A DNA stretch of 64,000 bases from Marsupella aquatica (taxonomy: Eukaryota > Plantae > Marchantiophyta), in assembly GCA_973895155.1 (NCBI GenBank), contig OZ316895.1, forward strand, positions 20,598,803-20,662,802, in the 5' to 3' direction. Positions within the stretch are counted from its first letter, which is position 1; every line of letters starts with the position of its first letter. Positions 2,200 to 43,430 of this stretch are shown piece after piece. The notes below the pieces were generated by a model, which was not told where the DNA came from, ran no database searches, and saw nothing but the letters and a program-made list of their open reading frames with translations. A program made the position numbers and the translations under genes.

Positions 2200-2780
2200 A
2201 AAAGTAAAATAAACCAAAAGATTGAGCTTAGGAGACCAGACATGTGCTTGTATATAGCATGCTCATCGTGGAACATGTTTGAGTTTTTGTCTTGTAATGA
2301 TAAATAAAATATGAGAACATAACTAGAAGGATTGGTGCACAGTGACCAATGAAAAGTATAATCAAGGATGGTACGATGTGTGCACTTAATTCAATGTTCT
2401 CATGAATGATACTCATTTCAATAAAAACCATAAACTTAGGAAAAAAAGACATGAGGAGAGCTTAAGACACAATCAGAATCATTTCTCTCATTCATGAGAA
2501 TGTTCATCTCTAATAAATCACAAACATTAAAATTTATAAGGGGGCTGCCAAAATATGTTCAAAATACTTTACAATACTAAAAATTAATGGGGTCCATAAA
2601 ATAATTAAAAATGTATATGATACGCAGGCTGCACCTTCATAAGGCACATTGAAATACAAATATATGACACCAAAACTCTGAATAAGACAAAATCTGAAAG
2701 ATGTATTCACCATATATAAGTGCCAAAGACAAAATCTGAAAGATGTATTCACCATATATAAGTGCCAAACAAATCTGAAA
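2200..2780 (+). repeat. Dispersed repeat homologous to ~12330-12790, ending in a 42-bp tandem duplication
   Basis: Shared blocks AAACCATAA.TTAGGAAAA...CTTAAGACAC and GAATAAGACAAAAT.TGAAAG.TG.ATTCA.CATATA. The unit AAGACAAAATCTGAAAGATGTATTCACCATATATAAGTGCCA is repeated about 2.3 times at ~2684-2780. Confidence 0.65.
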
Positions 2781-3229
2781 AGTTCGCGTGACCGTAATCG
2801 AATAGGCCATGAAGCACTTTACACTAGAGTGTAATCAAGGTTTGGAATCTTCAAAGTGATGAGACGCTGTTTCTCGATCCTGAAAAATTCGCGTGACGAT
2901 AGTCAAGTGAACTATGAGCCCCATGAGGCAGAGGAAGCACGAGAAGCACGAGAGTCTCTGCTGAACAGAAGATACGAGAAGCGAAGCGAAGAGTTTCTCT
3001 GCAGGAGAGGAGAAGAGATTCACGAGTCTTTCTGTGTGGGCCCAAGAAACTTGCGAGCAACGGGGGAGGACGCGTAACACACAACATGGACATTTTTTTC
3101 AGTCAATCAAGTCGGCTGGGCAATTGGAATTGATCAAACTGCTTCAGCGGTGATGGGGGTCACAGTCTCAGAGCCGCGTTAAACTCAACCTCAACCCCAA
3201 CCTCGAGACGAAGAAGCAGTAGAGTAGTT

Positions 3230-3271
3230 AAGAAATGCGATCCACCCAAATTCTGATTGAGGAGGGTTGAC

Positions 3272-3319
<48 letters not shown>

Positions 3320-3595
3320 GAGGCAGTGGAGATATAAGTGTGGTGAAGGAGGAGAGGCTGTAAGTTTCAAGGTCGGGAAACTCAAAGGTGGTCTTCTCGG
3401 TCCAGCAGTTTAAGGAGCATAAGGAATGCGATCGACCCAAATTCTGATCGAGAGGATTGACTAGAGACAGAGAGACAGAGAGACAGAGAGACAGAGAGGC
3501 AGTCGATATACAAGCGTGGTGAACGAGGAGAGACGTTGTAAGTTTCAAGGTTGGGGAGCCCAAAGGTGGTCTTCACCGTCCAGCGGTTTAAGGAG
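3230..3595 (+). repeat. ~190-bp tandem duplication, each copy with a GA/GAGACA microsatellite, in the putative 5' leader of INH3
   Basis: AATGCGATC.ACCCAAATTCTGAT...TTGACTAGAGA..(GA)n..AGGCAGT.GATATA.AAG.GTGGTGAA.GAGGAGA...TGTAAGTTTCAAGGT.GGG...CAAAGGTGGTCTTC...GTCCAGC.GTTTAAGGAG occurs twice (from ~3230 and ~3421). Confidence 0.9.
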
Positions 3596-3618
3596 ATTGA
3601 AGAAGTCTGTTTTGGGCG

Positions 3619-3879
3619 ATGATTATGGCTTCCAACAGCAGCAGAAGTACCATCACCTTTGAGCAAGAACCGATTATTCCAGACAACCGACGGCAGGCTG
3701 AGGAGGCTCTAACCCTTACGCTTCGTCCCCGGCTCAAGAAGAAAGTGTCCTGGAAGGAGGGAACCGTGGACAACGAATTCTTGCAGAGGAAGACCTCCAA
3801 GAAATGCTGCATATTCCACAAGCGGCAGGATGAGGAGGACAGCAGCGACGATGAATTTCGTCCAAGCTGGACTGAATGA
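3619..3879 (+). CDS. INH3: Protein phosphatase 1 regulatory subunit Inhibitor-3 (PPP1R11/Ypi1 family); start could be the second ATG at 3625
   Basis: KKKVSWKEGTVDNEFLQRKTSKKCCIFHK followed by an acidic tract: RVxF-type KVSW motif, VDNE and CCIFHK signature of the Inhibitor-3 family, nearly identical to plant INH3. Confidence 0.95.
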   Translation: MIMASNSSRSTITFEQEPIIPDNRRQAEEALTLTLRPRLKKKVSWKEGTVDNEFLQRKTSKKCCIFHKRQDEEDSSDDEFRPSWTE

Positions 3880-6800
3880 TCTCCTCCTGCAGGAAATGTG
3901 ATGGTACCAGGGACGTGAAAGGCAGCTGCTGTGAAGCCCAGGTATGCCCAGTGCACGACTGAATCAACGTTGGAGTTAATTACTGCAAATCTTCTCGAAA
4001 TTCCCTTCTTGTGTTTTGTCTTTTGTTGTTTCTGTTTCTTCGGTTTGGTTTGGGTTTGTTCGTTGTTACCACCAAGTGGATGCGGGTGCCCAATTGGAAA
4101 ACGTATCAAGGTTCCTAGCGCACAACATAGGCAGAGGATTTACTCCTAATCACCACGCTCGTTTAGTGTATGATATTTGGGCCCCTGCTCCTGAAGAGGA
4201 GACTAAGTGGTGAAAGGGCGTCCTTCGTATTAGTGACCGTACAAAATTTCGATGTTGTAATATAGATGATGCCTTCTTAGCAACTTTTGATTCGTCTAGA
4301 GCAGGACATTCAGGGATTGCAAAAGGGCTAATGGTGGAGGATTTGTCCACTATCCACCTTCACTTTATGCCTTTCCATTCATATATCATGCAAACATATG
4401 CTGGAGGCCGCTTGCCTAGATGGTGGAGGTGATGATCACTGCGGGAGTGCATCCGACAGGAAAGTTGTGGCATGTGCAACGGCAAATCTCTTCGTTCTAC
4501 TTTCTTGCCCCTATCTCTTTCAGGGTTCTGTGGACTTTATAAACAATTTGAACTCAATTTCTTTTTACAGAGGATGCATATGTTCCTGAATATCCAATAC
4601 CCATACCATGGATCCATTAGTGGCTGAATGATGCAGTGTATCCAGAGTTTCCCCTTGGGACATGCGACTCTACTTGTGACATCTTCTTGTCCTTCTCTCT
4701 ACCTCTATTATCTAATAGTCCATCTTCAGTTTAGTGCCTTCCGTTGAAGGATAAACAGGTCGTTACTAGTATGCATATGAATTTGTTCTACTGCCAGTGC
4801 CTGACTTCTGATTAGATCCTCTTATCTTCCCAATGGTTTCTCTTCCCAATGTTTTCTCTTCCCAAAGGGCCTCTAGCTCGTGCCTTCAGTATTTCCTGCT
4901 TTCCCGTATTTCAGCATGGGTAATGGTGATCTGGAGATAATCGTCCTTCTAATGTTGTACAGGGCCAATGTCTTCTTAAAATATTACTGCATCGAACTTT
5001 TGAAAGGTCCATTTGGGATGCATTGTTTCTCAAAACTGCAGTTGAATGGCCCTTATTATGAATTGTACAGTTGCAGTCGACAGTTTCAAACAGTCTTGTC
5101 AGCTTTATCCCATTAGAAGACATTATGATGCTCGTCAAGAGGGTCATTTTTTCTGTGTACTGGCATGACTGCAGCGAAGGGCCTAGCAATTTTTTTCTCT
5201 AAAAATAGAAATTGTCTGTGCACTTGGGCTGGTTGATTATAACATTTCTTGGAAGCAGACGAAACCAGTGTGGTGACGAGGTTTTCCGAACCGATGATTT
5301 GGGTATATCATGATCTCTTTTGAACTGTTGGAGGTCAATAATTCGAATAGTAGAGGATGATCATTTGAAAATTCTATGTACTAGTTTGTGATTTAAATTG
5401 TTAGATGTAAGGTGGAGATGGGAACATTTCACTAAACCTCAGGTGGAGCATGCACAATACCGTGATCGCCCATGGCGTTGGTTGTTGAATCGTGGCAGAA
5501 TCTCACAGCTTTAATGAGATAATCCACTTCTAGCTTCACTTCTCAAATGATTGGTTTGGGAAATTGGAAATCTTTGCTCGTTAGCCTTTTGGTTCAACAT
5601 TTGAGACGAATGTTGAAGCCGAGACGGGACATACGGGCCTGAATGGATCCTGATGTTGGTACCAACTTTTAGTTTTCCTGAGAAACTACCAACCTTTAGT
5701 TTTGCGCGTAAAATTCACAAAAGCACAAAAGTTTACTCCATCTCTAATTTCTATCTAGGTTTGGAGAAGTATTTGCTTTTCTATTGTCATTAGATGAAAT
5801 TCGCTTTTCAAGTTCCCAGTCCTGTTGAGCTGCGATCCCTTGTTATCCCTATATTTCCCTGATTATTTGTAGTTCAGATTGCAGACTCCGCGCACCAGGA
5901 ACTGGAAGCAAGAGTCGTACATATCCTTTAGAGAGGAGGTGACACTTGTTTGAGATTTTAATAAGAATCCTCTCGTGAGCATCATCACTTAGAATAAGCT
6001 GGTCTAACTAACATATTTAACCCCAGTCGGTTGATGCCTACAATGAAGTCATGGATCGTGTCAATATATCCACACTCTGGTTTTGTTGGGAATCCTCTGC
6101 TGGACTCCGTTTTTCTGATCAAGAGTCTGAACGAAGCTGAAAAGTTTCCATTCATGAGGGTGGATCGACTAAATGAAGAAAGTGCTCCTGCAATGCTTTC
6201 TCTGTATGTTTTCAAGTTTTTTCTTCTCTTTTCAACTAGCAGGGTTCTTTTTGGATATTTACTTGTTGGTTTGACTCGTGTGCTCTGTCAACAGGCTGAC
6301 TCGACCTGAAGGCTCCGAAGGACAATGGGGAGGCGAGTGTTTATGGAGAGTCGGCAACATACCGGTTTACTACCTCCAAAAAAAGAAGTTCCCTTCATGG
6401 CAGAAGTTTTCTTCCTATATGAAATGATCAAAGTTAATAATTGTCCCTTTCAGTGGGGATAGGCTCGACATGTTATATATTGCACATATTATCAACAAAG
6501 GTTGTGTAGAAAGCATCTCAACAATTTAGTAGTTCAATGGTTCTGGGTTCAATCCAAATCTGGAACATGTAAATCTTCTGGAGTTCTTCATTGCAAGATA
6601 TGTAAGGATGAGTTCTGAGCACCTTTTAAAAATATATATATATATAATCGAATCTGGAATGACTAACGTACGAAGGCGTGAAAGATTGTTGTGATTATTG
6701 TGAGTACAGATGTGTTTAATAGCAGGAAGATGTGTTTAAGGTGCTGTTGTTGCCACAAATTCTCGTTGAGGTTCAGGTCTCTGCCTAGGCTTTAGCACCG

Positions 6801-8311
6801 TGTGGCCGTAAAGCTGAGTAGGTTTAGTCTCGGTACATTGTGGTGCGTTTGAAATCTCTTCAGAATGTCGATCATCCACGTTCCTGCAATTTGTCCGAAG
6901 GATCTACGACGCTTTCGTCAGAAGTTTACATTTCCATCGCTGGGGCCAAACGACCTATAAGGTAAGGGATCTAGAATATGAGGGACTTGCCAGCTGCTAC
7001 CAAAAAGCATTGTGGCAAGGCCACCAAAAAAACTAGTTGGGTTCTAAAGGAGTGGGACCTGGCTAGCTTTCATAACGCATAAAGCTGTTTTTGCTGGTGT
7101 GTGGGTCACCGTGATGAAGAACTCTGCAAATTGTGCATACGTTGAGCAAAACGAAAGGAAAGAACGAGAAATGATGAGGGACAACCATTCTCTACGAAAT
7201 GCCTTTATAGCGGTGGGCTCCTATCAAAGGGTTTAGTACCCGCTGCAAGGCGCCTAGATCTGCTCTTCCTATGATTAAGATATACGGAAAGTATGTGCCC
7301 GTTGATCTCACGACATGTTTCTGCGTTTCTAGTTAAAGGGCATAGAGGAAGATTGTGTCCGAATAGCTGATTGACAGTTAGCCCTGTATTCAAAGTCAGT
7401 TATCATCGAAATGCTGGGGCATGAATTTGGGGGCTGTCTTCTGGGGTGCGTCTGCAGGGGTGAACACATTGTTGATTCAATAATCAAAAGAAGAGGTTTC
7501 TAATATATACATAACAGCTAAGTTTCTAAGATCAAACCAAAGGCGTGGAGCAATGGATAACATACGTATAACATGTCTAGTCAGTATTGCCCCTCATCTG
7601 ATCTCACGTCCAATGACTAGGATTCAACTCTCGTTGTTTTGGTGCCATTAAATGCAAGCTTTGTGCCTAGGTGCAGCTCAAACACATCACAAAGTGAAGC
7701 CTAGGCCATTGGTATTGAGCTACAGCTCCTCTAATACATTTTTTGTGGGAGATTTTGTCTGTCCCTGGGGATCCGTCACTTGTGGCCACTTACTGAAAGG
7801 ACAGAGGAACGGATAGGTGGTGAGATGTTTATGTGATTGCCTTCGCTTAGCTTACTTTCTGGGAATTTGGGAAATAGGAAAGGTTCTTTTGAACTTTTAG
7901 TTACATATTTAAATCATAGAACATGATTGCTCCTCTGAAATATAATCTTTCCACAAGTAAACAATATGAAGCTGCCAGGCACTGGCAACACGATGTCTAC
8001 TCTGAAATATAATCATTTGACAAGTAAAATGATTTTGCGAGGCCACAGTCGTTGGTACCTTGCACAACTTCCCAGGATGGAACGAAGAAAAAGATGCCGT
8101 CATTATTTCACTCGTTTTCAAATACCAGTGATGATTCTCTGAGATCCAGCTTCTGAAGCTACTACCCCTAATAAGTTTGCAGACTGCCATATTGTTCGAA
8201 GCTACTGTACTTCATCACCAAATAATTTGGAGAAAAGGATCATACTATCGAATGGACACTTTTCCATATTTTAGGACAAGTTTTGCGTCTAGACATGATT
8301 GAACTTTCATA

Positions 8312-8622
8312 CTTTCTCTCTTCCCACTTTCAAAGTCCACTTTGACTCAAATGTGTGTCCCAGTTTATATGTACACTTTTTACCTTTGCTCTGTTGGTGG
8401 TCTTAGACTTGCTAAGAATAGAGATGACATCAGCCAAAAGGACCTCCAAATATTGATCAACAGAGTAGAGCGCAAACTTTACATCTACCTTCCTGTCCAC
8501 TCATAGCAAATATCTTCATCATGGAATATCTTAAGTCTCCATGGAATGGCTTTTCAACATATGTGCAATCTAGCTGCACTAGTAACTCAAAGTGGACTTT
8601 TAAGTTGAGAGAGAGGGAGACA
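8312..8622. mobile_element. MITE-like inverted-repeat element (degenerate)
   Basis: TCTCTCTTCCCACTTTCAAAGTCCACTTTGA at the left vs TCAAAGTGGACTTTTAAGTTGAGAGAGA at the right. Confidence 0.45.
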
Positions 8623-10804
8623 GAGACTGTAGGACCTTGGTATACTGAAACAACTGCACTAGTGCATGAACAATAATTGTCTTCTAGAAATTTTCAAACT
8701 GAGCAAGCAGGCTCCAGAACTATGACAGAAGGGACTCGTGCATAGCTATTAAATAGTGGAAAAGGTGTACTTCCAACCAGTCAGGCATCCCAAAATGCCA
8801 GCAGAGACCTTACAACCAGTGACAATACCATTTCTTCTCTCCTTGGAATTTGTTCTCTATAAAAAAATGCTGCTTGTAGGCCCCCCAAAAACAAAGAGAT
8901 GCAAGTACAAGAACTTTTGCCCACAAGATGATGCTAAATGTTGGGCAGAAAGGGGCAATAAAATCGTGCAACGTTCATTTTCAACGTTCTGAATTATGCC
9001 CCTCTCTCGTACTGTAAGATATATAATTGAGTGGAGGCCTGCGAATGGCTGGTGTGGAGATCCAACTGACAAAGATAATATCTTAGTGACAATCAGGTTT
9101 GCCTAAAAAAATTCAACTGTTGAAGATTGCGATCCCAGGGCATATTTCAACAGTATTCCAAGCATAATAATGTAATACATTCATGGATGAATGTATATAA
9201 AAAATCCAGTTAAAAAATGAGATGTCAATAAACGATTTATGGAATTGAGCTATGATTGGAATGACATAAATATTAATTTTCTCGAGGGCATGCTTGAATG
9301 TCCTTAAGGTAATAATGGTAAGTCTCAAAGCTAGATCATTAGTGAAAGGTATGTATTTATGGTACATCTCATAACTCCCCTTATGTGACCCAATTATGAA
9401 ACTTCAAAAATGGGGGAGGTAGTATTGATTAGCCCCATAAGGAAGGATATACTCTCTCACTTGTCTCATAGCCTATATTTTTTTCTCCTCAATTCTTAAT
9501 CAGTGGCCACATCAAACGCAACAGCTAGTGATGTCAGACGCAAATCCCACATGCCTTCAGTTGCAACTTTCCGGAATCCTAGAGTCCTAAATTTCTGAAT
9601 TTTTGCGCCTAAAATTGCAGGAAAGTTATGGGTTAAGAGCCTGCAAGCTGTCTTTACTATAGCTGAAAAATTGGTGTCATAAATTTTACCAGAATTCCCA
9701 TAATACTGGAGTTATGAAAGTGTCTTATCTTGTTAATACCAGAATTTGAGTCTAAATACTAAATTTTAACACCCTAAACTCGCATTTTGCATATTATTAT
9801 TATTATTCTGCACAAGTTTATCTCTACGGAAGTCAGATAGAGCAAAGTGGGTACTATGTGTTTTGATAATTTGCGAGCTTTTTGGGGGTGGGGGACAGGA
9901 GTTTCGAAAGAATGATGTACTACCAGCTTACAAGATAATATTATCAAGTCACTCCCAAAAGTCAAATGAACCTTTGATAGGAAACCGCTGGTGGCGTTGG
10001 AGGGAACCAACTCAACCAATCAATCTCTGGTCAAATTGTATAGATTATTTGAGATCTAGGTCAACTGAAATCCTTAGGCCATTATGTGCACCAGGATCAT
10101 CACTTCCTCATCATTTCTTTGATACTACGAGCATGAGTACATACTAACTTGTACTATGTTTTTAATTTGATCTTCAATAGATTTATATAGGATTAATTTT
10201 TAAATTTTGTGTAATACATGATTATGAATATACTTTGTGTCAAACAATTTGTTTTTAATTTGGGAATCTGAAGTGAACATATCCCACTGTAAATGTTGTA
10301 ATTATACCCCACGCAGAAAACATCCAAGTAAGAAGAACACATGCCCCGGTTGAAACAAACAGTCAGAGCTAAAGCATCTAATAACATTTGAGGGCAATGT
10401 GATTTGATGTAGAGGTATTGGACGCATACCGGGGAGGTGCTAGAAGAACAATTGAGGGCAATGGGATTATTTAGTCGCTGAGGTATTGGACGCATAGGCA
10501 GCAGGCACTTTAAGACCCATGGGTGCTCTAACCTGTCCCTGTTCTTCCCTCATAGTAACCAGGGACAGCCTACCAATACGACAATATCCATTCCTATCAC
10601 GAAGAAAAGAGTGGGGAGCAACAAATCAGACCCTCTCTACAGGTGGGCAGACCTCTCATCGCACTCCACAGGCCCTTGTGAGCCATGACCTCCCCTTGGT
10701 ACTAAAGGTGGCTTTACAAAAAGTTGGGGGCACTTGTGAACTTTTTCACCAAACATGTGAAAAATGAAAAAAAAATGCTCTTTTCCAACCTATACCCCTC
10801 AAGG

Positions 10805-11777
10805 GAGGTATATGCTTGATGGGACCCTTGCCAAGATAAATTTAGGTGGTAGGCCATTATGAGACTTTTGTTGCAAACTAGGCCCCCTCTAACACTTTTG
10901 TGTCAGATGTTCTTGTAAAGAGTTTTAGCTTTATATTATCACCAATAAGAGCTACTGTAAAGTTTAGAGTCGCAGCTTGTTGAATGACAAACTACACCGT
11001 TGGGGGAACCGCGGACTACTAGCAACTGTCGCGCAAATTGCAAGTTCCTCAATGAAGACAATATGGTTTATGTCTTCAGGTTTGAATTTTGTCTTTTATT
11101 AGGTTGCTTCACGACACCTATGCACAGGGTTTGCATGATATCTTGATGTTTCTTTTGTTCTTTTGTCTAAGTATGCAATGAATCGTCTACTTTTGGCCAT
11201 TGGTCCCTACTGCAACGTTTTAAAATTGTCCAAGTGTGGAATGCATTTTAGGGTTTAGTGAACCCTGAACCCTAAACCCTTCTCACATCTCGACCCCAAA
11301 TTTGTCCAAGTATGTAAGGAATCAGGGACCTTTTACTCTTGGTTGTTTTCCCTTGTTGCAACTTTCAAAAATTGTCTAAGTAAGTGTGAAAGAAAGACAC
11401 CATGGAGTCAATCATAATGGGAAAATTTTGAGCATGCACGAACTACACTAAATGTTTAGACTAAATGCTATCCAAACCCACTATCATGTAACGATGGATC
11501 CCTTAAAACTCTACAATCGTGTGAAGAGATAATTCATTATGTCTTCTAGTATAGAAGTATGCGGTGTGGACTGCTATGCAACGTGCAATGGATTGTAGTG
11601 GAAAATATACAGTTGACCATGCATTTAGGCACCACATAAGAACCATGTGTACAGAACCTATGCAGAGGGCCTAGTTGGTAGCAACATTTTTGTGGGGGGC
11701 CTGGTTTGTAACAAAGGTTTAGTAGGGGCCTGTCATGTGAATATTTTCAGGCAAGGGTCCCATCAAGCATGTACCTC
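10805..11777. mobile_element. Non-autonomous Mutator-like element, ~970 bp, with diverged ~100-bp TIRs
   Basis: Left GAGGTATATGCTTGATGGGACCCTTGCC vs right GGCAAGGGTCCCATCAAGCATGTACCTC (27/28 inverted match), with weaker similarity further in. No coding capacity; TSD not recognisable. Confidence 0.7.
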
Positions 11778-14700: not shown

Positions 14701-16111
14701 ATGATGAATTTAAACAGGTCAAAAGCTTCCTTTGGACAACAACTGTTATCCAAGCTAGAGTGCAAGTGATAATCAAGCAATGTGTGTTTAGTTTTGAGCT
14801 CAAAGACCAATTGCTGTGATCCAACTCAATTGAGGTGTTCGCTTGATGGACCCCCAAACCAAACTCTTTTCCCCAACCAACCCATAAGGTTTTGGATAAG
14901 TTGATTTAAGGTCTTTCAACCATCTAGATCACTCACGGGTCTTCTTACATAACTAATTTTTCTTGTTTGTGACCAATAGTGCTAATGTGAATCCACATGC
15001 TTCCAGAAATTTTGGAATGAGATTCCCATGGGTTCCATACAAATCAGATTGACCTAAAACTACAATTGTCCATTTTCAAATCCAGGTCTCTTAGCAAAGT
15101 AAAAGGTGAACAAAAAAGTGACTACTCTATCCTCCCACAACTCTGGGACAATGACGGTTCAGAAGGAGCAATTTTTGTTATAGAAATATCGGAGGTTTTT
15201 TTTTTTGGGGGGGGGGAGGAAAGGAAAACCCAACCTGGGGAGCAAGGTCATGCAACTGGCCCAGCCACTTGGGGGAGGGAGGAGGAAACCCTTTTCACAT
15301 TGAAAGCACGAATTAATTATAGATTATAAGAAAGATCCTAAAAAGTGCATAAGCCATAGCTCCCAAACCAAGGTGTCATGATTGGAACTAGAGGAGTGGA
15401 TAACTAGTAAGAGTACTGGATCATAGGTCCATAATCGAAAGGCATTTTTCAATGACAAGCTTCTGAGTAACAGTGGGTTTTCAGTCCTTGAGATTAAAAC
15501 CTATCGGTTGTGCTTCAACAGAATCAACACACTAGATAGTCAAACATTGATTAATGTTCAAGCCCCCAAGCGCTTGCTTGTCCACTCTTGCTTGGTGGCA
15601 ACTGATCTTGGTCTTTCTTGGAACAGAAGTTTAGGATGGGGTTTAGGGTTTATTCCTGATGCTTTAGATCTCAACTTCCCAATAACTTTGCATAGAGTCT
15701 ATCTCCCATACCTACTACTACCTGATTATGTCCACTCACAATAATTTATTTGTTGGGAAATTTTGTCCCACAACTTATGCGAACGTAATGATTTCCCATA
15801 AGTTGGCAAAATTATGGGAAATCATTACGTTCGCAAACAAGTGTGTGATACAAGGGATACCTTTAACACTTATTTCAGCAGGGTATGGTACACCTAAAGA
15901 CCTCAAAGAGACTTACAAAACCACACCAAAAAGTCAAACCTTGTATGAATAAGAATACACAAGTTTTGTGTGCCTACTATGCACTGAAATAGTCCCAGTC
16001 CCAATATGACTGTCTCGGGAATCCTGTTTATACATAGACCTTGAACATACATAGGTTGTCAATCGCATTTTGCAGCATAGATAGTAGACAGTTGAGGTAC
16101 TAATTCAATGA

Positions 16112-16211
16112 GAGGGATTTGTTTAATCGACCCTCTCCTGCAAAACTTTTACTTAATCAACCCCCTCCAAACTTTTTTTCCCCAATCGACCCCCTCTTTA
16201 TGACCCGTACA
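16112..16211 (+). repeat. Left TIR of the MULE
   Basis: GAGGGATTTGTTTAATCGACCCTCTCCTG...TGACCCGTACA is the reverse complement of 24786-24885; contains three AATC(G/A)ACCC motifs. Confidence 0.97.
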
Positions 16212-16812
16212 GAATGTTCTTATAAAAGCTCTTATACCGTGCGCTTTTCGGTTAGAAGCACCAAACTGGGTGGATTGTGACTGCATGCCTCAACCACGAA
16301 CTATGCAAGCCTCAACCACGAACCATGCAAATATTTGACAGTGAACCGCGCCCGTTACCGGGGCTCGAACTGAGTGCAGGAAACATTGTGGAGGCATGTC
16401 ACTTCTTCTTGCGCCGCCTGTACGTCGACATTAGGGCTTTTGAAATTTGAAGACATTCATGTCAATGTTTTCACAATGAAACCTCGTCTTTTGCAATATT
16501 CTCTCATTACATCGTTTTCATTCATTCATGCAAGAACGGCGACGAGACTTTCACGAGGCGCACGCACCTGCCAGATTCGATTGCACAGGAAAGCAAGGTA
16601 CTGTTGTGCAGATAGTTGAAATCTAGATGTCAGTTTTTGGAACGTGTAAGGAGACAACGCCATTTCCAAGAACGTGTAAGCTAAGGAAATGATGTCAGTT
16701 CATGGCCTGCAGAGTTGGCATGTGGTTGAGTTTGGATTGTTGACCTTTCCTTTCTTCATGTTTTGACAAGACTAACCTCTGCCCTTTACTGATGCGCACA
16801 TTGAAGTACAGG

Positions 16813-19800
16813 ATGGCAGGGGATGTAAGTGAACTCAATCTTTGGCGTAGAGGGGATGTTTGTGAAGTGGACATCCCCGATTCTGATAGGCAATCACCAC
16901 AAAGAGCTAGGTGGGTCCCCGGTTCACATAGGCAATCACCACAAAGAGCTGCGCGGGTCCCCGATTCACATAGGCAATCACCACAAAGAGCTACGAGGGT
17001 CCCCGATTCACATAGGCAATCACCAGAAAGAGCTAGGCGGGGAACGACCAGAAGACATCTAAAAAATCTGACATTAATCCTGGATGGGAAGAGTCCTGAA
17101 GAAGGTGAATGATATTTATATGCAAGTTGCTGTTGTGTATGCTATATGAATTGCCATAGATCATAAGGCTGTTGATTTCAACTTCCATGGCTTACTGTTT
17201 GAGGTTCCATTGGAAGATGTTGTCGTTGGATTATAGCACTACTCTCTAAAGATCGATGTTGCACCTAAAGACGTTCTCCATTATGTCTTCACATTCTAGT
17301 ATTCTATAATACTCTTTGCAGTGGAAGCAGAGGCAGCTCGCATTCAATTGGGCGAGCGTTTTAGCAATTTTCATGATTTTGATAGATGTCTGGACTCATG
17401 GGCTGTCATGCATGGCCGGGTAGTGTATAGACTTAAAACTTTCTCCAATTTTTGAACAAGGGTCTGTCGATTTAGTAAAATTGTTCATCAACATAAAAGT
17501 AAGTCAAGTGGTGACATCAGACCCGGGCCAGACAGTCTTCAATGCAGTGGTAGTTCAGAAGATGAAGATGAAGATATCCATGGAGTGGATGATGATGATC
17601 AAGATGAACTAGATTGGCACTATGATAGTCGTTATGGTGAGTATAGTGGGTTCCGTGAGAAGGGTATGACATCTGAACCAAAGAGGATAGGAAGGACACA
17701 CAATGCACATGCACAGCCATTACTCACAGCGGAAGAGGTAAAGTTTGTCAGGAATCCTAACCTGTATCATTCTGTTTTCTTTTCACGATTTTACAAATGT
17801 AATACTTGTACACTATATATTCATGATATCCTTGTGTTCCCACTGCAGTTGGAAGACCGAGAATTTCAAATTGCTATTCAACAGATGGCAGGATCAAATA
17901 ATCATTCTGGGATAGGTGTTCTCACAAATATTCCACGGGTAATGTCTTTGTATACCTCAACCACAATGTCTTCTTTGTGTTCCATGACAATTTTTATGTA
18001 TACAATTACATCAATGTCTTCTTCCCTTTGTTTTGTATACATCGACACCACTGTCTTTTGTGTTTCCATATACAGTAGCATGAATTTCTTCTGTGTGTAT
18101 TGCAATAGCAGGTTCGTGCACCGCTTGGACCTCTGGACCCAAATACTCTCCAGAGGAACACAACCGTGGCAAAGAAACCACGCACAATAGTTCAGCGTAG
18201 CAGTGTGTGGCTACCTGGGTCACATGCCCCAAGGCACAACCCTGATACAATAAAAATGAGGAACCCATCAGCCACAGGAGTGTGCGGGGAGTTGTCTAGA
18301 TTTAGGCCACCTCCAGAGTACAATGAAGAAGGTTTTGATTGTTTACCCTACTGCCCATTTAGGGTCCGTTGTCATAGGCAGGCGCATAGCGGGGCGCATA
18401 TCATTACCGTGTGTGATTTGAAACACACTTGCCCAACTTCAAAACACAAGTGGAGGGGCCCTACACAAAAAGCAGTGTGGTTGGGAGACACATTGGCACC
18501 TAGAGTATGTAGAAATCTAAAGGTGCCTGTGAAGGAACTGTTGTGCGGGTTTCAGGGGGGCTACAAAAAAAACAGTACTTACCACCAGATGTGGCGAGCA
18601 AAAGACTATGTACGGGATTTGCATCTTGGTGGGCAAGAGGATACCTTTCAGATGATTCCAGCGCTCATTGCCAGGGTGAGAGAGACTGACCCTGGTGTAG
18701 TGGCTGTGTGGTCCACTATGGGAGACTCCATAGTTTTCTGCCGAGCATTCATTTGCCCATCAGCTACACAAAAAGCATGCAGCTTTATTCAGCCTCTAGT
18801 TTCTCTTGATGCATGTCATACAAAGAATAGGAAGTACCCCACTCAACTGTTCTTAGCTACTGTTTGGATGGAAATGGACAAGGGCTGATTTTGTGTTATG
18901 GAGTAGCTCCAGTGGAGAATACTGAGAATTGGATCTGGTTCCTTGAATTAGTTGATAGATCCTTGTACGGCATTGAGTTGCCTAACATGCCACTCATATC
19001 AGACCGACAGAAAGGCCTACTTGCCGCTGTGAGTTATGTGTGGCCAGGTAAGATACATGCAACATGTGCAAACCACCTGAGAGCAAATGTCAAGAACAGG
19101 CATGGGAAAGCAGCAGCAGACATTTTAACAGGATGCATATATGCCAATGATGAAAAACAGTAAGTCCAAAAACCTTCATTGCTTTCATTCTACAGCAAAC
19201 ACTACTGTCTTCTTGTGTATACACCACATACTCGGTGTTCAATACACTAATATTACCTCTCCTCGAATACATAATGTGAAGTATGCAAACACACAAATGT
19301 CTTCTTTGTTGATTGTATACATTAACATCAATATTTTCCCCCTGTGCACCTGTATCAGATATGAAGCATGTTTGAAGCGGCTGACAGAGTCCAAGAACGC
19401 ATATGAGAATGAGAAGGCTGCAGACTACATCAGAAGTTTTGATGTGAAACTTTATGCTAGGCATGCCTTTCCACTTCCCCGCATGGCAAAGGTTACAAGC
19501 AACCCTGCTGAGCAAGCAAATTCAGGCTTACTCCCCTTGCGCGAATTTTCTCCTTGCAAGTTGATGGAGCGCATGTGGGTATATGTTCAACAAAAGTTTA
19601 AAGAAAGGAAAGCAGTTGCGTTACCTAGACAGGAAGTACTCACTATTCCAGCCCTGGTCAGGTACAACAAGAATCTCAAGACATTTGGTCAATGGCAGGT
19701 AAGCTTCATTCCTGGTCTTGGGTATGCATAACTACCAACGTCTTTTGTATACTGTAACATGAATGTCTTCTTACTAACTATGTTTTTAATATGATTCCTT

Positions 19801-20818
19801 ATAGCCAGGTTCTCACATGCTCAGGTATTTGATGATGGTGCGTCCACAGCCAAGGTTCAAACTACATCACAGAGTGAGGAGTACCTAGTATCGCTATCAC
19901 CAAAGAAGCGTTGCACTTGTTGGGAGCTGCAAGAGATGGTGTGGCCATGTGAGCATATAATGGGATGGGATGACCAGGAAGGCAGAAACTTTTCTGCTCA
20001 TTTTCATAGATGTTGGCGGACTGCTTCAATTAGGGCTTTGTATGACAATGGTTTACCTAGCTTTATTGTATCAGACTTAATGCCAAGTCCAAATTGTGTA
20101 GCTCCTGCGGCTGCTGTGAAAAGAGGCAGGCATAGAATGGTGAGAATTGAACAGGGTCATGGAGGGGGGAGGCATCCACCCAGGGCTCTTGGAGAAGGCC
20201 AAGATTCTGTAATTGACTCCCTTGGACAACTCTTCTTGAGATATCCACTAGATGATGATCCTAACATGGTGGAACCCTTTCCAACAGCAAACACTATTGT
20301 TGGACTTCCAATTGTTCAAGTTCAATCGAGGGCAAAGAAAGTCGGGCCTAACACTGGGAAGAGCAAGTGTAGTAAGTGTGGGCAGGTTGGACACAACCAA
20401 AGATCTTGTGATAAACTCCATAGTGCAACGCCGACAAATCCGCCAATAGTAAGAATCCTGTGTGTATCATTAGTTGTGGGGATAAGTTCATGTGTGGTCT
20501 CATGCTAGGGTCTTATTTTCAAACTGCCTTGATATGCAGGTGGATAATAGTGGTCAACGGGATGTGGAGCACCCACCTATGTCACCCTTTGCTTGGGAAG
20601 AAGAACTACTCCAGACTGAATATAGTATTGTATCGACAGCACCAACATCTGGCATTGGACAAATTCAGAGCACTGTATCTGAGCCCCTTCTGCCAAATAG
20701 TGAACAACAATTGCCACAAGCTTTCATTGATAGGTGCATGGAGCTGGCAAATGAGGCTGCAATAGAGTGTGAGACATTTGGGTCACAATATCATGTTGAT
20801 ATTACTGAACCTCATTAG
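16813..20818 (+). pseudogene. mudrA: MURA-like transposase, 7 predicted exons (16813-17104, 17322-17737, 17849-17938, 18112-19159, 19359-19698, 19825-20448, 20540-20818), ~1030 codons; premature TGA at 17453-17455 and a 1-bp deletion near 18864
   Basis: All introns are GT-AG and frame-preserving. Motifs: IQLGERF (N-terminal DNA-binding region), CPFRVRC...HTC, DDE core LDACH / SDRQKG / CANH / TSNPAE, SWIM CTC...WPCEH, zinc knuckle CSKCGQVGHNQRSC. The frame changes at LATV/(L)DGNG. Confidence 0.93.
16874..17045 (+). repeat. 42-bp in-frame tandem repeat (4 copies) in transposase exon 1
   Basis: TCCCCGATTCACATAGGCAATCACCACAAAGAGCT... x4, encoding PDSHRQSPQRAxRV-like units. Confidence 0.92.
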
Positions 20819-20902
20819 TATCCTGTTTCTTTGGTTGGCTTCAAAATAGACTCTATTCACATGTTCAATTTTTCCACCATTATTCTGTCATGTGTACACC
20901 AC

Positions 20903-21050
20903 GTCCATGTTGTCTTCCCGGTTCTCTTCCATCCTTGCACTTGGAGACCACTTCCATGTTGTCTTCCCGATTCTCTTCCATCCTTGCACTTGGAGACCAC
21001 TTCCATGTTGTCTCCCGATTCTCTTCCATCCTTGCACTTGGAGACCACTT
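20903..21050. repeat. 48-49-bp tandem repeat (3 copies) between the 3' ends of the two MULE genes
   Basis: CCATGTTGTCT(T)CCCG(A/G)TTCTCTTCCATCCTTGCACTTGGAGACCACTT x3. Confidence 0.92.
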
Positions 21051-21060
21051 TCAGGTTGTC

Positions 21061-21605
21061 GAATGAAGTAGTAGGATTGGAGTGCACGTCGAAGACAATG
21101 AGATTCATATATTCAGACATTGCAAAGCAAGTCCGCCAACTAATTCACATCAAAGACTAAGGCAGACCTGGGAGAGGTTGGTTGACGTTGGAGCGGCCGG
21201 TGCTGCTGCTTGTGCTGGTGGGTCCATTCTTACAGCCCTTCCCCTTCCCCTTCTTCCCTAGAATGAAGTAGTAGGATTGGAGTGCACGTCGAAGACAATG
21301 AGATTCATGTATTCAGACATTGCAAAGCAACTCCGCCAACTAATTCACATCAAAGACTAAGGCAGACCTGGGAGAGGTTGGTTGACATTGGAGCGGCCGG
21401 TGCTGCTGCTTGTGCTGGTGGGTCCATTCTTACAACCCTTCCCCTTCCCCTTCTTCCCTAGAATGAAGTAGTAGGATTGGAGTGCACGCCGAAGACAATG
21501 AGATTCATGTATTCAGACATTGCAAAGCAACTCCGCCAACCAATTCACATCAAAGACTAAGGCAGACCTGGGAGGGGTTGGTTGACGTTGGAGCGGCCGG
21601 TGCTC
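21061..21605. repeat. 200-bp tandem repeat (~2.7 copies); each unit is a 90-nt exon plus a 110-nt intron of MULE gene 2
   Basis: GAATGAAGTAGTAGGATTGGAGTGCACG recurs at 21061, 21261 and 21461; copies are near-identical. Confidence 0.95.
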
Positions 21606-23585
21606 CTTCTCCTATTGGTGATGGGGACTCCACCGCTATAGTCCCTCCTCCCTGCAATGCAAAAAGATATCGAAATACAAGGAGGGTCATGTATTCAGGA
21701 TGTGCAAAGAGAGCAAAGAAATTCTGAAAGCAATTTCAGCAAAAGAATGAAAGCTAACATGGATGTTTTGTGGTGCTGATGCTGATGCTGATGCTATGGA
21801 CTTAGGGAAGGTCTCCATATGTACACTCCCTCCTCCCTACAATGTAAACAATGCTTAATCATATCCGAATACATTGAGGGTCATGTATTGAAGATGTGGA
21901 AAGGAATTCTGCAAGCACTTGAAGCAAAGGAATGAAAGCTGACATGGGAGGGGTTGGGCTCAAGTGCAGGGGCTGGTGCTTCTGGGTCTGGGGCTGGTGG
22001 TGCTGCTGCTGCTACGAACTGAGGGATAGTGTCCACTACTGCATCCCCACATTCCTGCAAATCAATAAACAAAATGCTTAGGGGAATTTGAATATGTTGA
22101 GGCTCATGTATTGAGGATCTGCAATGAAATTCCAGAAGTAATTGAAGCAAACAAAGTAAGGATGAGTCCTTTACCTCTCCATACGCTTCCAAGATATTTT
22201 GGAGACTTGTAAGCACTTCGGCCTGTTGTGAAAGGTTCAGGCCATTATCTTGATGAACATCCTCAAGAGGAAGCTGAATAGGATCCACAACAGGATCCTC
22301 AGCAGGATCCTCAACATCATGAATAGGATCCTCAACATCTTTAACATTAGGAGGATCCTGAATATGTGAAGGATCCTCATCACCACTAACTTGAACATCC
22401 TGAACGACCTCAAGCGGATTTGAGACAAGAGACGGGTCCTGGATGTCATTACTCCGAACAGGTTCAGATACAACATGAGTGTCACTATCACTGTCATTTA
22501 CCAACAGACCCCACTTCTCAGGCCCAGGCTCATAATCGCTGCCATCGGATGTGTCCTCCCACTCTTCATTGATTCCAGCCTACACAAAATGGAGAGAGTT
22601 TCAGAATGTAATGTACAGACAAGAAGCAAACATTGCAGGAAGCAAAATCAAATGTTGATACCTCCTTTCTTGCGGCCGAATCAGTCATTCCCCGACTTTT
22701 GTACTCTTGCAGCAAATTGTTGGTGGCCTTGGCTATACTGATGGGCTTCTGCTAATCTTTCCACTCACTATAATCCTCATATGCAGCTTCAAAATCAACT
22801 TCTTTAGGGCCGTGTTTCCATTGCAGAAGTGCTCGCTTTTTACTGAGGTAGTTAAGAGCATCTGAGATAAGAGCCTCTCGAATGTCATCATATTGCATGA
22901 GCTCTGGAGGTTGCACCTCCACATCTGGCCGGGGGAAAATGCATGGCAAGACACTACAATCTAGTTGAAGTGCCTGCAACTTGTGATCTTTGGGTAGCAC
23001 TACCGGCAATGCTCGAATTGAAGCAACCCAACGACACAGGAGAGGAGTAATTGCAGTAGCTGAAACTGAGTCTTGCAACATCTCATATAAACTGTCATCC
23101 AACAAGGATGACCAACCCTCCTCCTTTCCACGTATGTGCACTTCCTTCATTAGACGAACAAACAAAGACTTTGCAGGAACAAGTGGCTCATCCGCAGCAA
23201 CACCATACTTCCTCTTCAACAATGCCTTCTTCCGCAACTTTGTCTGTTTCCACCGAAGCCGCACAGTGGATCTAAGTCGCTTCCAAGATGCCTCATTGCT
23301 GTCCTTCCTCACATTTGGCCTAGGGGCCAAATGTTTTTTGGCAATCCGAGTGGAGAAGTCCAATTTTGAGGACAACCAAGGTTTGCCCGCCTCCACTAAT
23401 GCAGGTGGCAACACCAAGTTGTGCGTGAAGTCCATGTGGGTTTGAAAACCAGCAAAAGACAAAAATGACCGAGCCTTGTGAGCACCTGCAATGCAGACAA
23501 ACACGTGCTTGCCATTGGCATCAACACGATGCCGGAAGTGATCATCTTCCTTCGCTACCTCAATTACTCTGACTGGTGGCGCCAT
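21168..23585 (-). pseudogene. Second MULE-encoded gene of unknown function; predicted coding exons 23585-22662, 22579-22175, 22054-21944, 21836-21759, 21651-21568, 21457-21368, 21257-21168 (594 codons or more; terminal exon unresolved); one in-frame TAG at 22752-22754
   Basis: Long ORFs at 22752-23723 and 21881-22504 join via six phase-0 GT-AG introns. The frame stays open for 30 codons past the TAG up to a donor site. N-terminal FVC-x4-H-x4-F-x8-H-x4-H motif, K/R-rich segment, D/E/P-rich segment, A/P-rich repeats. Confidence 0.8.
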
Positions 23586-24196
23586 GGATAATGAGCAGCT
23601 ACCTTGGTTGGCCTCAAAATCAAACCCAACCTCTCCAACCAATGCCCTTGAATTGTGTCTTGTGCTGCAAAAGTGGAATACACAGATGTAATGGTATTCG
23701 AACAATACAAAACAGAGAGACATTCATGTCATGGTATTCCAAGAATGCGGATGCAGTCGAACAGGAAGACAATCATGGTATTCAAAAAATGACAAGAACA
23801 AGGAGACCAAATGATAATGTGTACATACGTAATTGAAGTTCACAGTCTAATCTCCATAGTCACGTCCTATGCTTATGCTTGCCACCACCTTCAATTCAAG
23901 CCTGAAAAATTCAATCCACAATGCGGGAACATTCATTCAAAAAAATTTATTCACAAAATGCATACATTTTAGAATCAATTTGGTATTCTGAATACTGACA
24001 ACCAGAAGAACACTCGTTGTTGCCTCAGTTCACTTGGTCCTGAGCTGTTGCCTCCCTCAGTTCACTAGGTCCTTGTGTGGATGTACTGCAAGTGATTAGG
24101 CAGACTTTCAACAAAATTAAAATTGCATAGTACAGTTCCAAGCGGTGGCTACAATGTGCGTGCTTTAAGAAGAAGGATGACAATGAATGTCACCCA

Positions 24197-24462
24197 AAAG
24201 CTCCGCGTCGCACTGCCTCCCATCACACTGCCTCCCGTTGCATTGACAGCCTAAAGCTTCGCGTCGCACTGCCTCCCGTTGCACTGCCTCCATCGCATTG
24301 TCAGCCTAAAGCTCCGTGTTGCACTACCTCCCGTTGCACTGCCTCCATCGCATTGTCAGCCTAAAGCTCCGCGTTGCACTTCCTCCCGTTGCACTGCCTC
24401 CCATTGCACTGCCTCCCATCGCATTGCCTCCTGCCGCATTGTCATCCTAAAGTTGCGAGTCG
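24197..24462. repeat. ~55-bp tandem array built from ~15-bp GCACTGCCTCCCGTT-like subunits, upstream of the MULE gene 2 CDS
   Basis: AAAGCT starts units at 24197, 24253, 24308 and 24363; roughly ten GCA(C/T)TGCCTCC-like subunits; CpG-rich. Confidence 0.92.
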
Positions 24463-24785
24463 TTGCCATTCCTCAGCATGCCATAGCCGCGACCCTTACG
24501 AAGAGAAGCTCCTCGTTGCACGGCAAAACAAAACAACAAACTCCGCGACAATGTTCCCACCTTAACCAACCCTAAACTACAAAAAAGACATGAAAACATA
24601 ATCCACAATGTATTCAACAGACGACATTTCTGGATTAGGTTAGTAACCTGGAATCGCTTGAGAGCTCCGACTATAATCGCTCGCTCCGACTGCAATGGCA
24701 ACGACATGGTAAACCATGACCCTAGAACTGCGTGACGATATGGTCACTAGCGTTGGAAAACTGTGCAGTTTTGGGGCCTTTTTTT

Positions 24786-24885
24786 TGTACGGGTCATAAA
24801 GAGGGGGTCGATTGGGGAAAAAAAGTTTGGAGGGGGTTGATTAAGTAAAAGTTTTCCAGGAGAGGGTCGATTAAGCAAATCCCTC
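24786..24885 (-). repeat. Right TIR of the MULE
   Basis: TGTACGGGTCATAAAGAGGGGGTCGATT...GCAAATCCCTC followed by the TSD AATTCAATGA. Confidence 0.97.
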
Positions 24886-24980
24886 AATTCAATGATCATA
24901 ATGTTAGTAATTTACTTTTGGGTCTAGATTTACTACTTTATTTAGTACGGTTAGTTTAACTATAGTATCTACTTGGTATA

Positions 24981-28292: not shown

Positions 28293-30174
28293 TTGTGATG
28301 TAGTACACTCCACCTCCTTACCCTCCCGGCTATTGTTTACTTTCCTCACTGCTGGTGATCATTGCATCGGGCCTGGAATGCAGTACCTTGCCCCAAAACA
28401 AAATAAAATTACAAAGAATCATAGAAAGAAGAGGGCAGAGTCCAAAATATTTCCGGGGAGTGAGGGGCCAAACACAACACGATAAAGGCACCAACCATTC
28501 CAAAAAAAGCAGGAGAACAATTATGATACAATCTTGGCGTTCTGGACTTCTGGTTTACTGCGTTAGTCAATGCGTTGAAAAACTGAACTGTGGCGTTCGA
28601 GGAGTTTTGGAGTAGGTCTGATTAGATTAGTAGACGACTGAAAATTTGTGCGAAGCAACCAGCCTACCAAAGGTGCAGTAACGTTTTTGGATGTTGTGAA
28701 CACAGTAGCAGTCTACAACGTAGGCTGTTTCTAATGCCTTTTCTCGAATGGAATGAGTGATGAGTGATGACTGTAGATTGCTTGGCGTTGGGCACGTTGA
28801 TGAATTATTTATGGAGATTATGCGAGCACACACATCCAGCCATGACGTTGGTTGGCAAGTTTGCGACCCACAATGCACGAGAACCGAAAAATTGAGAAGC
28901 ATGCACCAATCTTGGTTGAGGAGAATCATCCAGTCCAGACAAACCGTCAACGACCTTGTGCCATAAGACCCCAGGCACGCAAATAAGCAATAAATGCCAT
29001 CTTCATCGTCGGTGCGTTTCAAATCAACACCATCGCCTCGGTATTGGGATCTTGTGGGGCACCCGACAGATGGACAACGCAGGACTACTCTTACTCTTAC
29101 TATTTTATTACTATATTATATTATCGTCTAGCGCTAAGGATCTAGTGCTCTACAGTCTCTTTTGTCGATTATATTCTATGATAATAATTAGTACTAATAT
29201 TATATACGTAAGATAGAGTCATAAGTTGTTCGTCGTCAGTTTCCATGGTGCGGACTGGCCAAGGACTCCAAGTCTGGACTCCCATGCACCAGGGCTGAAT
29301 GTTGTAAAAATATATTGTCGGTGGTAAATCTGAGTCTCAAGGTTTTGAGAGCATTGAGAATTGTTCTCTTGTCATGAACAAGGACCATGGTTTTTAGACT
29401 AGGTCCGTGTCACTGACCAGAGAGCTCTCTTTGGTAACATGAAGACTGAACTAATTGTGTTCGTCTTGGACATTGAATGTTGACTTGTGGATGGCTTGTG
29501 AGGGGAACTCCGTTCGCGCTGGAGGGTTCATTTGCATAATTTATGGCAAAGTTGATGATATTCATATGCTTTGACTTTAGGAACACCCTCACTTAAACTT
29601 CATGAATATGCCGTCTCAACCAATATCTCACCCTTATAACATGGTGAATCGAATGTATCCAAGAAGTCACCAACATGAGCAGTCTCCAATACCATATCCA
29701 CCTTAGAATCATCTGGCCAATTCTTCAAAATCATCACCAACATCTCAAGTTTGTGTCAAGACAAACTCAAGTCTATTTCCACATAGGTTTGTCAACATAC
29801 CAGCAATTCACAATTTGTGTTCACAGAATCACAGCAGGATTTGGCAGCAAATTGAGCAAGAAATTGTGCACAACTGCAGCTTAATTGTGCAATAAGAACT
29901 AAGCATAGTTGCAACATGAATCACAGTGACAATGCACAGCAGAGGATCAAGCAAGAATGAGCCCAAAAGTGATGGCAAACTCAAGCAGCATATTAGACAA
30001 TGAAGCTGAGTCTAAAATAAAGCAAAAATCAAGCAAAATGGCAGATAGGAAAATTAGCAGAAAAATTTACTGTCGTTGCCATACAGACCTTTTTTGTTGC
30101 CTTGAAACCTTGCCATGCAGACCTTCCGGAACTGCAAAGCCCACTACTAACTGCTGGTGATGTTTATTGCATGC

Positions 30175-30470
30175 CCGGGGTCCTGACTTATTTTTTTCCG
30201 ACCCATCATGCGCAAATAAGTATAGGGTTATTTTATTGGGTTTAGTGAAATATTTTTAAATTTTTGTTGAAGAATATTATGATTATTTTAATCTAATTTT
30301 GAGAATTATAAAAATCATAGGGTTTTTTATAATAAAATTTGAGAATATTCTTGAAATTTTCCATTAAATTAGGGGTAAAATTTTACTGACTGAAGTTTTA
30401 GAGTGTTTATTCCCCCAAAACTTTGCACGTGATATGGAACACCCCTTGGATTGAGGTCCCCGGGATTGCA
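30175..30470. repeat. Dispersed repeat with inverted copies at ~47880-48040 and ~50590-50850 (probable LTR-retrotransposon non-coding region)
   Basis: CACCCCTTGGATTGAGG, GTGTTTATTCCCCCAAAACTT and TTCCGACCCATCA match the reverse complement of 50597-50830; part also matches 47890-48030. Confidence 0.75.
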
Positions 30471-42224: not shown

Positions 42225-43189
42225 AATATGATACCATTTATTATTTGACATTGTTATATTTATTGAGGTGCTGAAGGCAATGGCTAGTAAAAGCTCATAA
42301 CTTGTGCATGGGCAAGGAGAAAGAGTAACAAAACACAAGCAAAACAGTCTAACAATAGTAATTAATGTTATGAGTGTGTAATTTAATGCATGGGTTTCTG
42401 AACAACTTTTCAAACCATTGTATGAGTCCTGGTAAATGCACATCAAAATATTATATATATGGTATACAACATCACTCCCTATCATGATAAATGTCATTAT
42501 TTTCTTAAAATTAGTGAATGCACACCTTATATTGCCATAAATTTTATGTGTGATTAGAGACAGGGCATTGTATGTATATTGGAGTTGAATGACTAAAGGG
42601 TGTTTCACAGCTGAGTATTTGATGGACCTGTCTTCCCTGGTTACCTGTTAAGGACACAAAAACTTGTGGACCATAGAATTCTTAGTCTGTAACTTTTTGC
42701 CATAAGGATTGGTTGTATGTCATTATCATTAGTCACTCTAGAGGCTGGTGAAAGTAAAACAAATAAAAACTTTTACATAATCTTATGAAAAAATTATGAC
42801 CATTTATTTATGGGCTAATGCCATCATAAGTAATTTCTCAGCTTTGAGATACTCAGATACCCTAATAATATATATTGCACTCCCAAAGAACTAAAAACAA
42901 ATATGCCATTTAGAGATAAAAGATCCAAAGACACGAGACTAAGGGGGAGAAAACAAGGTAAAATTCGTTCCGAGACAAAGAAAAGTTCAATCGCGGCCCT
43001 CATTCATCGTGGGCAGCAGGAATGTGACTGAGAAAAATCCGATAATAACTGTTCGGAAATAATACTCACATTCGTGACTTGACAAAGAAAAGGGTCGTTC
43101 AAATGCGGCGCGCATTCATTCTGGGCAGCGGGAAATTACACAAACGACAGAAACAAGTTCAAACGCAGCCGAGCGTGGCAGGACAGACC

Positions 43190-43430
43190 TCGGGCAGAGG
43201 ATCAGAACGGACCAGGAAAGAAAATCCTGGTCGGGCAGCGGATCGGAACAGAAGATCTCGTCCGGGCAGTAGGGCAGACAGTCGACGGGCAGACACCGGG
43301 CAGCAGATCAGAACGGGCCAGGGAAGAAGATCCCGGCCGGGCAGGCGCGGGCAGGGAAGCGCAGCGCAGACCCCGGGCACCGGATCAGAACGGGCCAGAG
43401 GAGAAGATCCCGGCCGGGCAGACGGCAGAA
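43190..43430. repeat. GC/CpG-rich imperfect repeats (~45 bp, 3-4 copies)
   Basis: GATCAGAACGG.CCAG....GAAGATCCCGGCCGGGCAG-like units at ~43200, 43240, 43306 and 43383. Confidence 0.8.

Follow-up and report, generated by a model that had tools for sequence, protein, structure and literature searches.

A zinc-finger gene in a liverwort Mutator-like element and its possible part in anti-silencing

What is a second gene doing inside a Mutator-like element (MULE) of a liverwort? The element in question spans 16112-24885 (8.8 kb) of a 64,000-nucleotide stretch of Marsupella aquatica DNA (contig OZ316895.1 of assembly GCA_973895155.1; the whole stretch is referred to as the window). It holds a broken transposase gene on the forward strand and, facing it on the reverse strand, a gene that we call gene 2. 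The original prediction, made from the letters of the window, saw in gene 2 a DNA-binding helper or anti-silencing factor whose target would be a tandem array upstream of the gene. Judged by its homologues and its copies, gene 2 is a real gene, conserved and present in many copies. We tentatively read its product as an element-borne DNA-binding self-activator that would work like VANC of the Arabidopsis VANDAL elements without being recognisable as one, a reading that we hold at somewhat below an even prospect.

Gene 2 and its relatives

The model of gene 2 on the minus strand has seven predicted exons, six phase-0 GT-AG introns and 594 codons with one TAG among them. The splicing is a prediction from sequence, with no RNA run among the six runs listed. 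The model agrees with the earlier claim of a spliced gene of 594 codons or more that converges on the transposase. Exon 1 (22662..23585, 308 codons) encodes the conserved folded part, namely a zinc finger, a long basic helix and a helical bundle, as indicated by 12 homologues and by the structural model described below. These homologues (E ≤ 0.001, 28-56% identical) came from a search of 1.84 billion representatives and none of them has a name. Eight are Logan sequences and four are from JGI/IMG, on contigs of 920-3609 bp. None of the 12 was found in an annotated NCBI genome, so these homologues point to no host donor. At 31-57% pairwise identity, they keep an open frame for about 300 codons. 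In seven of the 12, the similarity stops at the protein level at a Val directly after the residue that ends exon 1 in the window, which fits a shared GT donor at this border. Homology also extends beyond the premature TAG of the window copy (codon 278, 22752..22754, minus strand), reaching 55% over 324 columns against homologue P0002.

The public runs, coded X1, X2, X3 and X5, show gene 2 in runs of three organisms. The TAG is a minority allele in the family; by depth, codon 278 is a sense codon in 104/127 (X1), 882/882 (X2) and 724/994 (X3). Contigs on the gene-2 half that are less than 90% alike amount to 128 of 252 in X1, 197 of 536 in X3 and 13 of 22 in X5. The transposase was also covered in all four runs found with gene 2, which belong to three studies. 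Among the variant rows listed by the tool, a small sample (374 and 1298 further rows lay outside it), 8 of 18 in exon 1 were silent against 22-28% expected (p 0.03-0.11), as were 9 of 22 in the transposase and 2 of 12 in exons 2 and 4. The homologues, together with the many diverged copies in runs that cover the transposase, bear out the earlier view of an accessory gene, one that is conserved. An unconserved reading frame and an ordinary single-copy host gene were both looked for in the homologue search and the run contigs, and neither appeared.

These data bear on whether gene 2 is passive cargo, that is, an old captured host gene or fragment of the Pack-MULE type that is of no use to the element. 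Host gene capture is frequent in MULEs (PMC6446971, PMC13317346). The window copy carries a stop and is without its last exon, and deletion forms of the gene exist (22903-23180, 22185-24055). Yet no annotated NCBI genome contributes a homologue, frames of about 300 codons stay open at such divergence, and the many copies lean to silent changes. We regard cargo as very improbable.

Searches beyond these homologues added little. A profile search of proteins of 722-2060 aa gave 0 of 7995 candidates, the range of 488-721 aa being covered by the single-sequence search only, and none of 79 viral contigs had a gene-2 match. One metagenome locus (L001, from 77 pattern matches) was a GC-rich, bacterial-looking contig with 28 codons matched and was dismissed as chance. 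No description of the family was found in the literature searched; the protein sets of PMC12973397 were not compared, and the family could sit there unnamed.

The remainder of the gene is built differently. Exon 2 (22175..22579) encodes an acidic low-complexity tract with 26% D/E and 2% K/R. It is followed on the minus strand by exon 3 (21944..22054, A/P-rich), exon 4 (21759..21836), exon 5 (21568..21651), exon 6 (21368..21457) and exon 7 (21168..21257), the last exon located. Exons 6 and 7 both start with an RG-rich run, which in exon 7 gives way to an A/P-rich part. Exons 3-7 and their introns are products of tandem duplication. A 200-bp exon-plus-intron unit is present 2.7 times over exons 5-7 (21061..21604, minus strand), its final unit truncated, and each intron copy contains TGTCTTC in the gene-2 sense (21097, 21297, 21497). 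No terminal exon was identified in the gene model, because the third 200-bp unit is cut at 21061, where the 49-bp repeats start. At the other end, the frame is open upstream of the ATG through 23586-23665 (minus strand), where a GF.FE.NQG similarity is seen in homologues P0002 and P0008 and a good acceptor lies at 23665; this stretch may be a conserved leader, or the protein may start in an upstream exon. Internal deletions of gene 2 were seen in other copies, with joints at 22903-23180 (276 bp, in frame) and 22185-24055 (1869 bp, exon 1 removed).

The predicted protein

Based on homologues, profile and model, a C2H2-type finger with the ligands C31, H36, H50 and H55 is encoded at 23421..23504 (minus strand), and a basic helix of residues 96-127 at 23205..23300 (minus strand). 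The pattern C-x4-H/C...H-x4-H and the basic helix are kept in all six homologues that span the N-terminus. In the rows spanning each ligand, C31 is conserved in 7/7, H36 in 6/7 with Cys in the other, and H50 in 8/8; by eye, H-x4-H is kept in 8/8. F29, F44 and F47 of the finger core are conserved, and R105, R111, W112 and K120 of the basic helix are kept in every row spanning them. The exon-1 model (predicted local distance difference test, pLDDT, 83; predicted template modelling score 0.52) is confident locally. It lays out a two-strand-plus-helix finger at residues 27-55 (strands 27-31 and 39-41, helix 44-55), a flexible linker, the 32-residue basic helix, a small helical domain and two further long helices. 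In the model, the fold, the four Cys/His ligands and the hydrophobic core appear as those of a C2H2-type zinc finger. The earlier description holds for the finger peptide, for the basic segment (with 19 K/R within residues 79-128) and for the acidic tract of exon 2.

From this layout we infer that the finger and the basic helix would read DNA. DNA-binding activators are laid out in this way, with an acidic tail besides, and such a tail is more to be expected of an activator than of a repressor. The same model bears on a different function, a MURB-like cofactor that binds the transposase and aids integration or directs it to chromatin, in which case slippage would have left the repeats of the element as by-products. 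Its three long helices would suit protein contacts, and a repeat search found six separate tandem arrays inside the element, so repeats arise readily. A two-gene layout inside the terminal inverted repeats (TIRs) is also that of maize MuDR with its two open reading frames (PMC6446971), and MURB binds the N terminus of MURA (PMC12973397). The conserved finger and basic helix, however, point to nucleic-acid binding, and slippage within one array does not explain one word that occurs above chance in non-paralogous introns, as described in the next section. We consider such a cofactor unlikely, yet it is the main rival to the self-activator reading.

Then, to what is the protein related? Pfam on the 13 aligned sequences gave nothing beyond two single weak matches. 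DUF1985, DUF287 and PMD had no Pfam match at E ≤ 1 in any of the 13 or in exon 2, Peptidase_C48 had no Pfam match, and no transposase domain was matched in gene 2. The structure prediction and Foldseek search that had been proposed with the original prediction were run on exon 1, and the latter returned no match at E ≤ 0.001 in the PDB; a viral library gave none at E ≤ 0.001 either. The finger is weakly like classical C2H2 fingers, namely ZNF410 by profile (E 2.5) and Kaiso by fold (root-mean-square deviation, rmsd, 2.7 over 41 columns, E 1.5). The best match in the VIA fold search (Z 7.7, rmsd 2.7, 73 aligned) consists of generic helices, and the middle domain alone (pLDDT 69) had a best fold match of Z 4.4. 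These weak fold results neither demonstrate a new fold nor exclude VANC. The VANC/MAIN-like fold of PDB 9LNK (PMC13547354) is absent among the fold matches listed, the library content for 9LNK being unchecked. No named or NCBI protein occurs among the 12 homologues, and no direct comparison with MURB was made. MURB is small and is not known to have a zinc finger, and the two genes of MuDR converge. With this scope, the protein is as unrecognisable as VANC, MURB or a Ulp1-type protease as it had first seemed, there being no Pfam, sequence or fold match to them or to PMD listed in the libraries searched.

The upstream array and a dispersed word

What DNA would such a protein read? The array first noted lies at 24188..24462 (forward strand), 603-877 bp upstream of the gene-2 ATG, and consists of a CpG-rich 55-bp unit present 3.9 times with 14-15-bp sub-units. 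The claim of an array of about 15-bp motifs some 600 bp upstream was right as to its existence and place; the repeat is now seen to have a 55-bp higher-order unit and to be one of the six arrays of the element. Its use as coding sequence was ruled out, as the 55-56-bp unit breaks the frame. The 15-mer has seven copies within 2 mismatches in the array; across the rest of the 64 kb no copy was found even when 3 mismatches were allowed.

As a narrower form of the self-activator, the protein could bind this 15-mer array and control the promoter of its own gene. The array is real and unique to its place. Its CpG is kept, with an observed/expected ratio (o/e) of 0.93, when 0.9 is reached by 4% of 200 windows outside the element, and its unit number differs in another copy (joint 24286-24382, X2). 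However, the element ends keep CpG equally without an array (0.88 and 1.02; the transposase exon has 0.32 and the main exons 0.32-0.50). The word also stands in one cluster, and no 9-mer or longer part of it turns up on the promoter side of the transposase or in any intron. The part of the original prediction that made the array the protein's target is weakly supported; the kept CpG and the varying unit number speak for it and the single location speaks against it. This form, which is counted within the self-activator reading, we consider quite improbable.

A dispersed word was searched for because VANC21 motifs, which are co-oriented, are found on the upstream side of the transposase and also within the introns of two genes (PMC5735166). 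TGTCTTC occurs at 14 sites in the element, 13 of them non-coding (3.3/kb) and one coding (0.21/kb), and at 11 sites outside it (0.20/kb). When tandem copies are counted once, it falls in 8 of the 14 distinct non-coding segments. Neither 300 dinucleotide shuffles nor 500 draws from the flanking DNA yielded a 7-mer with such a spread; the best reached 7 segments, a value seen five times among the shuffles and once among the draws. Four of the six predicted transposase introns contain it (17284, 17967, 18015, 19206, 19298 and 19764, forward strand), in many cases with a T run and then GTATAC(A) behind it, and it lies upstream of gene 2 at 23765..23771 (minus strand). In other copies it was seen in two short stretches (joint 23859; loose end 20966) among about 55 rows inspected by eye, which is anecdotal. 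TGTCTTC is thus a short co-oriented word found in several non-coding regions and rare in coding sequence, as a VANC-type motif would be, with the reservation that it was chosen post hoc and that an intron bias is possible. From its distribution, it is more likely to be the target than the single upstream array.

The orientation of the word opens another possibility. Of the 13 non-coding TGTCTTC sites, 12 read in the same direction as the gene closest to them, and the majority of sites are intronic. Gene 2 could accordingly encode a self-limiting or RNA-level factor, either a repressor of the family or a transcript binder that aids splicing or export. Some C2H2 fingers bind RNA, and exons 6 and 7 open with an RG-rich run. 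Against a repressor, the acidic tail suits activation more. Against an RNA-level role, VANC motifs are co-oriented too, yet are read as DNA (PMC5735166). We judge this reading to be plainly unlikely.

Other dispersed words were noted. GTATACA occurs 10 times in the element, always in non-coding sequence; in most cases it stands within transposase introns (17917-19824), separated by a few bases from a preceding TGTCTT(C/T). The true motif may be bipartite, TGTCTT(C/T) plus GTATACA. AATAC(A/C) occurs in the gene-2 introns and upstream (21258-24187, minus strand) at 17 non-coding sites and one coding site, partly through the intron duplication. One X3 contig links the gene-2 upstream region to intron 2 sequence.

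The element, known systems and the proposed role

The TIRs and target-site duplication (TSD) of the element are intact, as first claimed. The left TIR (16112..16214, forward) and the right TIR (24783..24885, minus) are 103 bp long and 97% complementary, and the 10-bp TSD is identical on both sides (16102..16111 and 24886..24895). Long TIRs and a TSD in the range of 8-11 bp place the element in the Mutator/MULE superfamily (PMC6446971). In run X1, 12 contigs leave the right TIR into dissimilar flanks; the TIR family therefore has many insertions. Between the two genes lies a 49-bp tandem repeat present 3.3 times (20898..21060, forward), with TGTCTTC at 20911 and 20960. Summed contig depth of exon 1 is about that of the transposase core in X1-X3, and that of the array is lower; these depths give no copy number and were not used as evidence.

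The transposase gene (16812..20818, forward strand) has seven predicted exons, as indicated by Pfam, homologues and GT-AG contexts for the exon borders. MULE (PF10551, E 1.4e-8) and Transposase_mut (PF00872, E 6.5e-9) match above the Pfam cut-off at 18831-19160; matches to SWIM and zf-CCHC are below it. The gene is broken twice, by an in-frame TGA (17453-17455) and by a frameshift near 18860. Other copies have an extra base at 18860 in three of four runs, so that the frameshift is without counterpart there. Among 526 candidates, the main exon has two relatives, a Logan protein (48%) and a protein of the leafy liverwort Calypogeia fissa (59% over 42% of the query); the homologues used were P0003 and P0004 (Calypogeia fissa). 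This one named match makes a liverwort the likely host of the element. By eye, the spliced C. fissa protein aligns on either side of predicted introns 4 and 5, which supports the borders of both. A 42-bp tandem repeat lies four times in frame in the predicted first exon (16874..17041, forward). At the protein level it makes a repeat of 14 residues within the N terminus of the transposase, a variable region, and the number and type of units differ in other copies.

Elsewhere in the window, a host gene for an Ypi1/inhibitor-3-type phosphatase inhibitor (PF07491, E 1.8e-17) lies at 3624-3878, preceded by a duplicated AG-rich leader. Dispersed inverted repeat copies that are 75-87% alike (30174-30466, 47882-48037 and 50593-50848) are possibly the ends of another DNA transposon. 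A G/R-rich low-complexity stretch at 43049-43638 is open in several frames and has no Pfam match.

Extra genes in MULEs are common, and in a survey of 1007 genomes no known domain was present in 47.7% of the proteins other than transposases that active TIR elements encode (PMC12973397). The system resembles VANDAL21/VANC21 and VANDAL6/VANC6 of Arabidopsis in having an extra MULE gene and a co-oriented word in several non-coding parts (PMC5735166, PMC10398659). Exons 3-7 of gene 2, tandem-built with duplicated exon-intron units, likewise recall the tandem-built variable regions and exon-intron duplications of VANC genes (PMC5735166). VANC, however, has been described as restricted to dicots and as a structural relative of MAIN/PMD by way of DUF1985 (PMC13547354, 10.1101/2024.09.27.615353). 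Gene 2 has a C2H2-type finger and no Pfam match to DUF1985, DUF287 or PMD, and its element has clear TIRs and contains the motif far less often (14 copies). Maize MuDR with mudrB/MURB shares the two genes between long TIRs, a TSD in the 8-11-bp range and a lineage-restricted second gene (PMC6446971, PMC12973397). MURB is a partner of the transposase, unlike gene 2 as read here, and the two are set apart by description only. Conserved extra coding capacity is also found in KAONASHI/Ulp1-carrying and PMD-carrying MULEs (PMC13317346, PMC12973397), whereas gene 2 has no Peptidase_C48 or PMD match and no host donor found. Sequence-specific self-activation encoded by the element, as proposed here, has parallels in Spm TnpA and the AtMu1 transposase (bioRxiv 10.64898/2026.08.24.746577). 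In those cases the regulator is or derives from the transposase, whereas no transposase domain was seen in gene 2.

As a self-activator, the zinc-finger protein would dock on repeated words in the introns and ends of the element, and the word read would more likely be the dispersed TGTCTTC than the single upstream array. The acidic tail would serve as an activation or chromatin-recruiting region. The outcome would be escape from silencing, with the copies of the family kept expressed and mobile. Both genes of the window copy are broken, and this copy would therefore depend on other copies.

Several points weigh against this proposal. A single finger alone reads few bases. The word was picked after looking and through six tests of k and strand, and the best values at k=6 and k=8 were reached in 25 and 8 of 300 shuffles. 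As TGTCTTC is T-rich and sense-oriented, it may be an intron or RNA signal. Eight of the 11 sites outside the element lie at 2182-11540, around the one host gene; the rate there, about 0.85/kb by hand count, is about four times below the collapsed rate in the element (10 in 3.2 kb). The one motif-bearing intron measured has a CpG o/e of 0.35 on 2 CpG. The lean to silent change comes from 18 tool-listed sites, with the stop site excluded and adjacent changes in one codon scored singly. Linkage of gene 2 and transposase on one molecule was seen in the window copy alone, and among the public-run contigs none bridges gene 2 and a transposase in other copies. High-depth contigs connect the 49-bp unit with the left end in reversed orientation (16473->20966 in X3, 16473->21045 in X1); they may represent a one-gene sub-family with longer TIRs and without gene 2, or the 49-bp unit may be placed in the left end of other copies. 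Finally, a MULE transposase by itself can demethylate and activate the family to which it belongs, acting from the TIRs, where it binds (bioRxiv 10.64898/2026.08.24.746577); activation of this kind therefore does not require an accessory gene.

The wider proposition is that liverwort Mutator elements have an anti-silencing system of their own, independent of VANC and PMD, in which a new zinc-finger family reads a short word in introns and ends and holds repressive chromatin off the family's copies. On the sequence evidence we rate it as possible and on the doubtful side. Sequence-specific anti-silencing by an accessory gene has been shown mainly for VANC of dicot MULEs, and the role of MURB is partly known. 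Even under another mechanism, gene 2 represents a protein family that has no name, whose model is confident and to which no solved structure is clearly related. If the self-activator reading is true, an unrelated bryophyte zinc-finger family with a named candidate word would make it possible to ask whether plants evolved such systems repeatedly.

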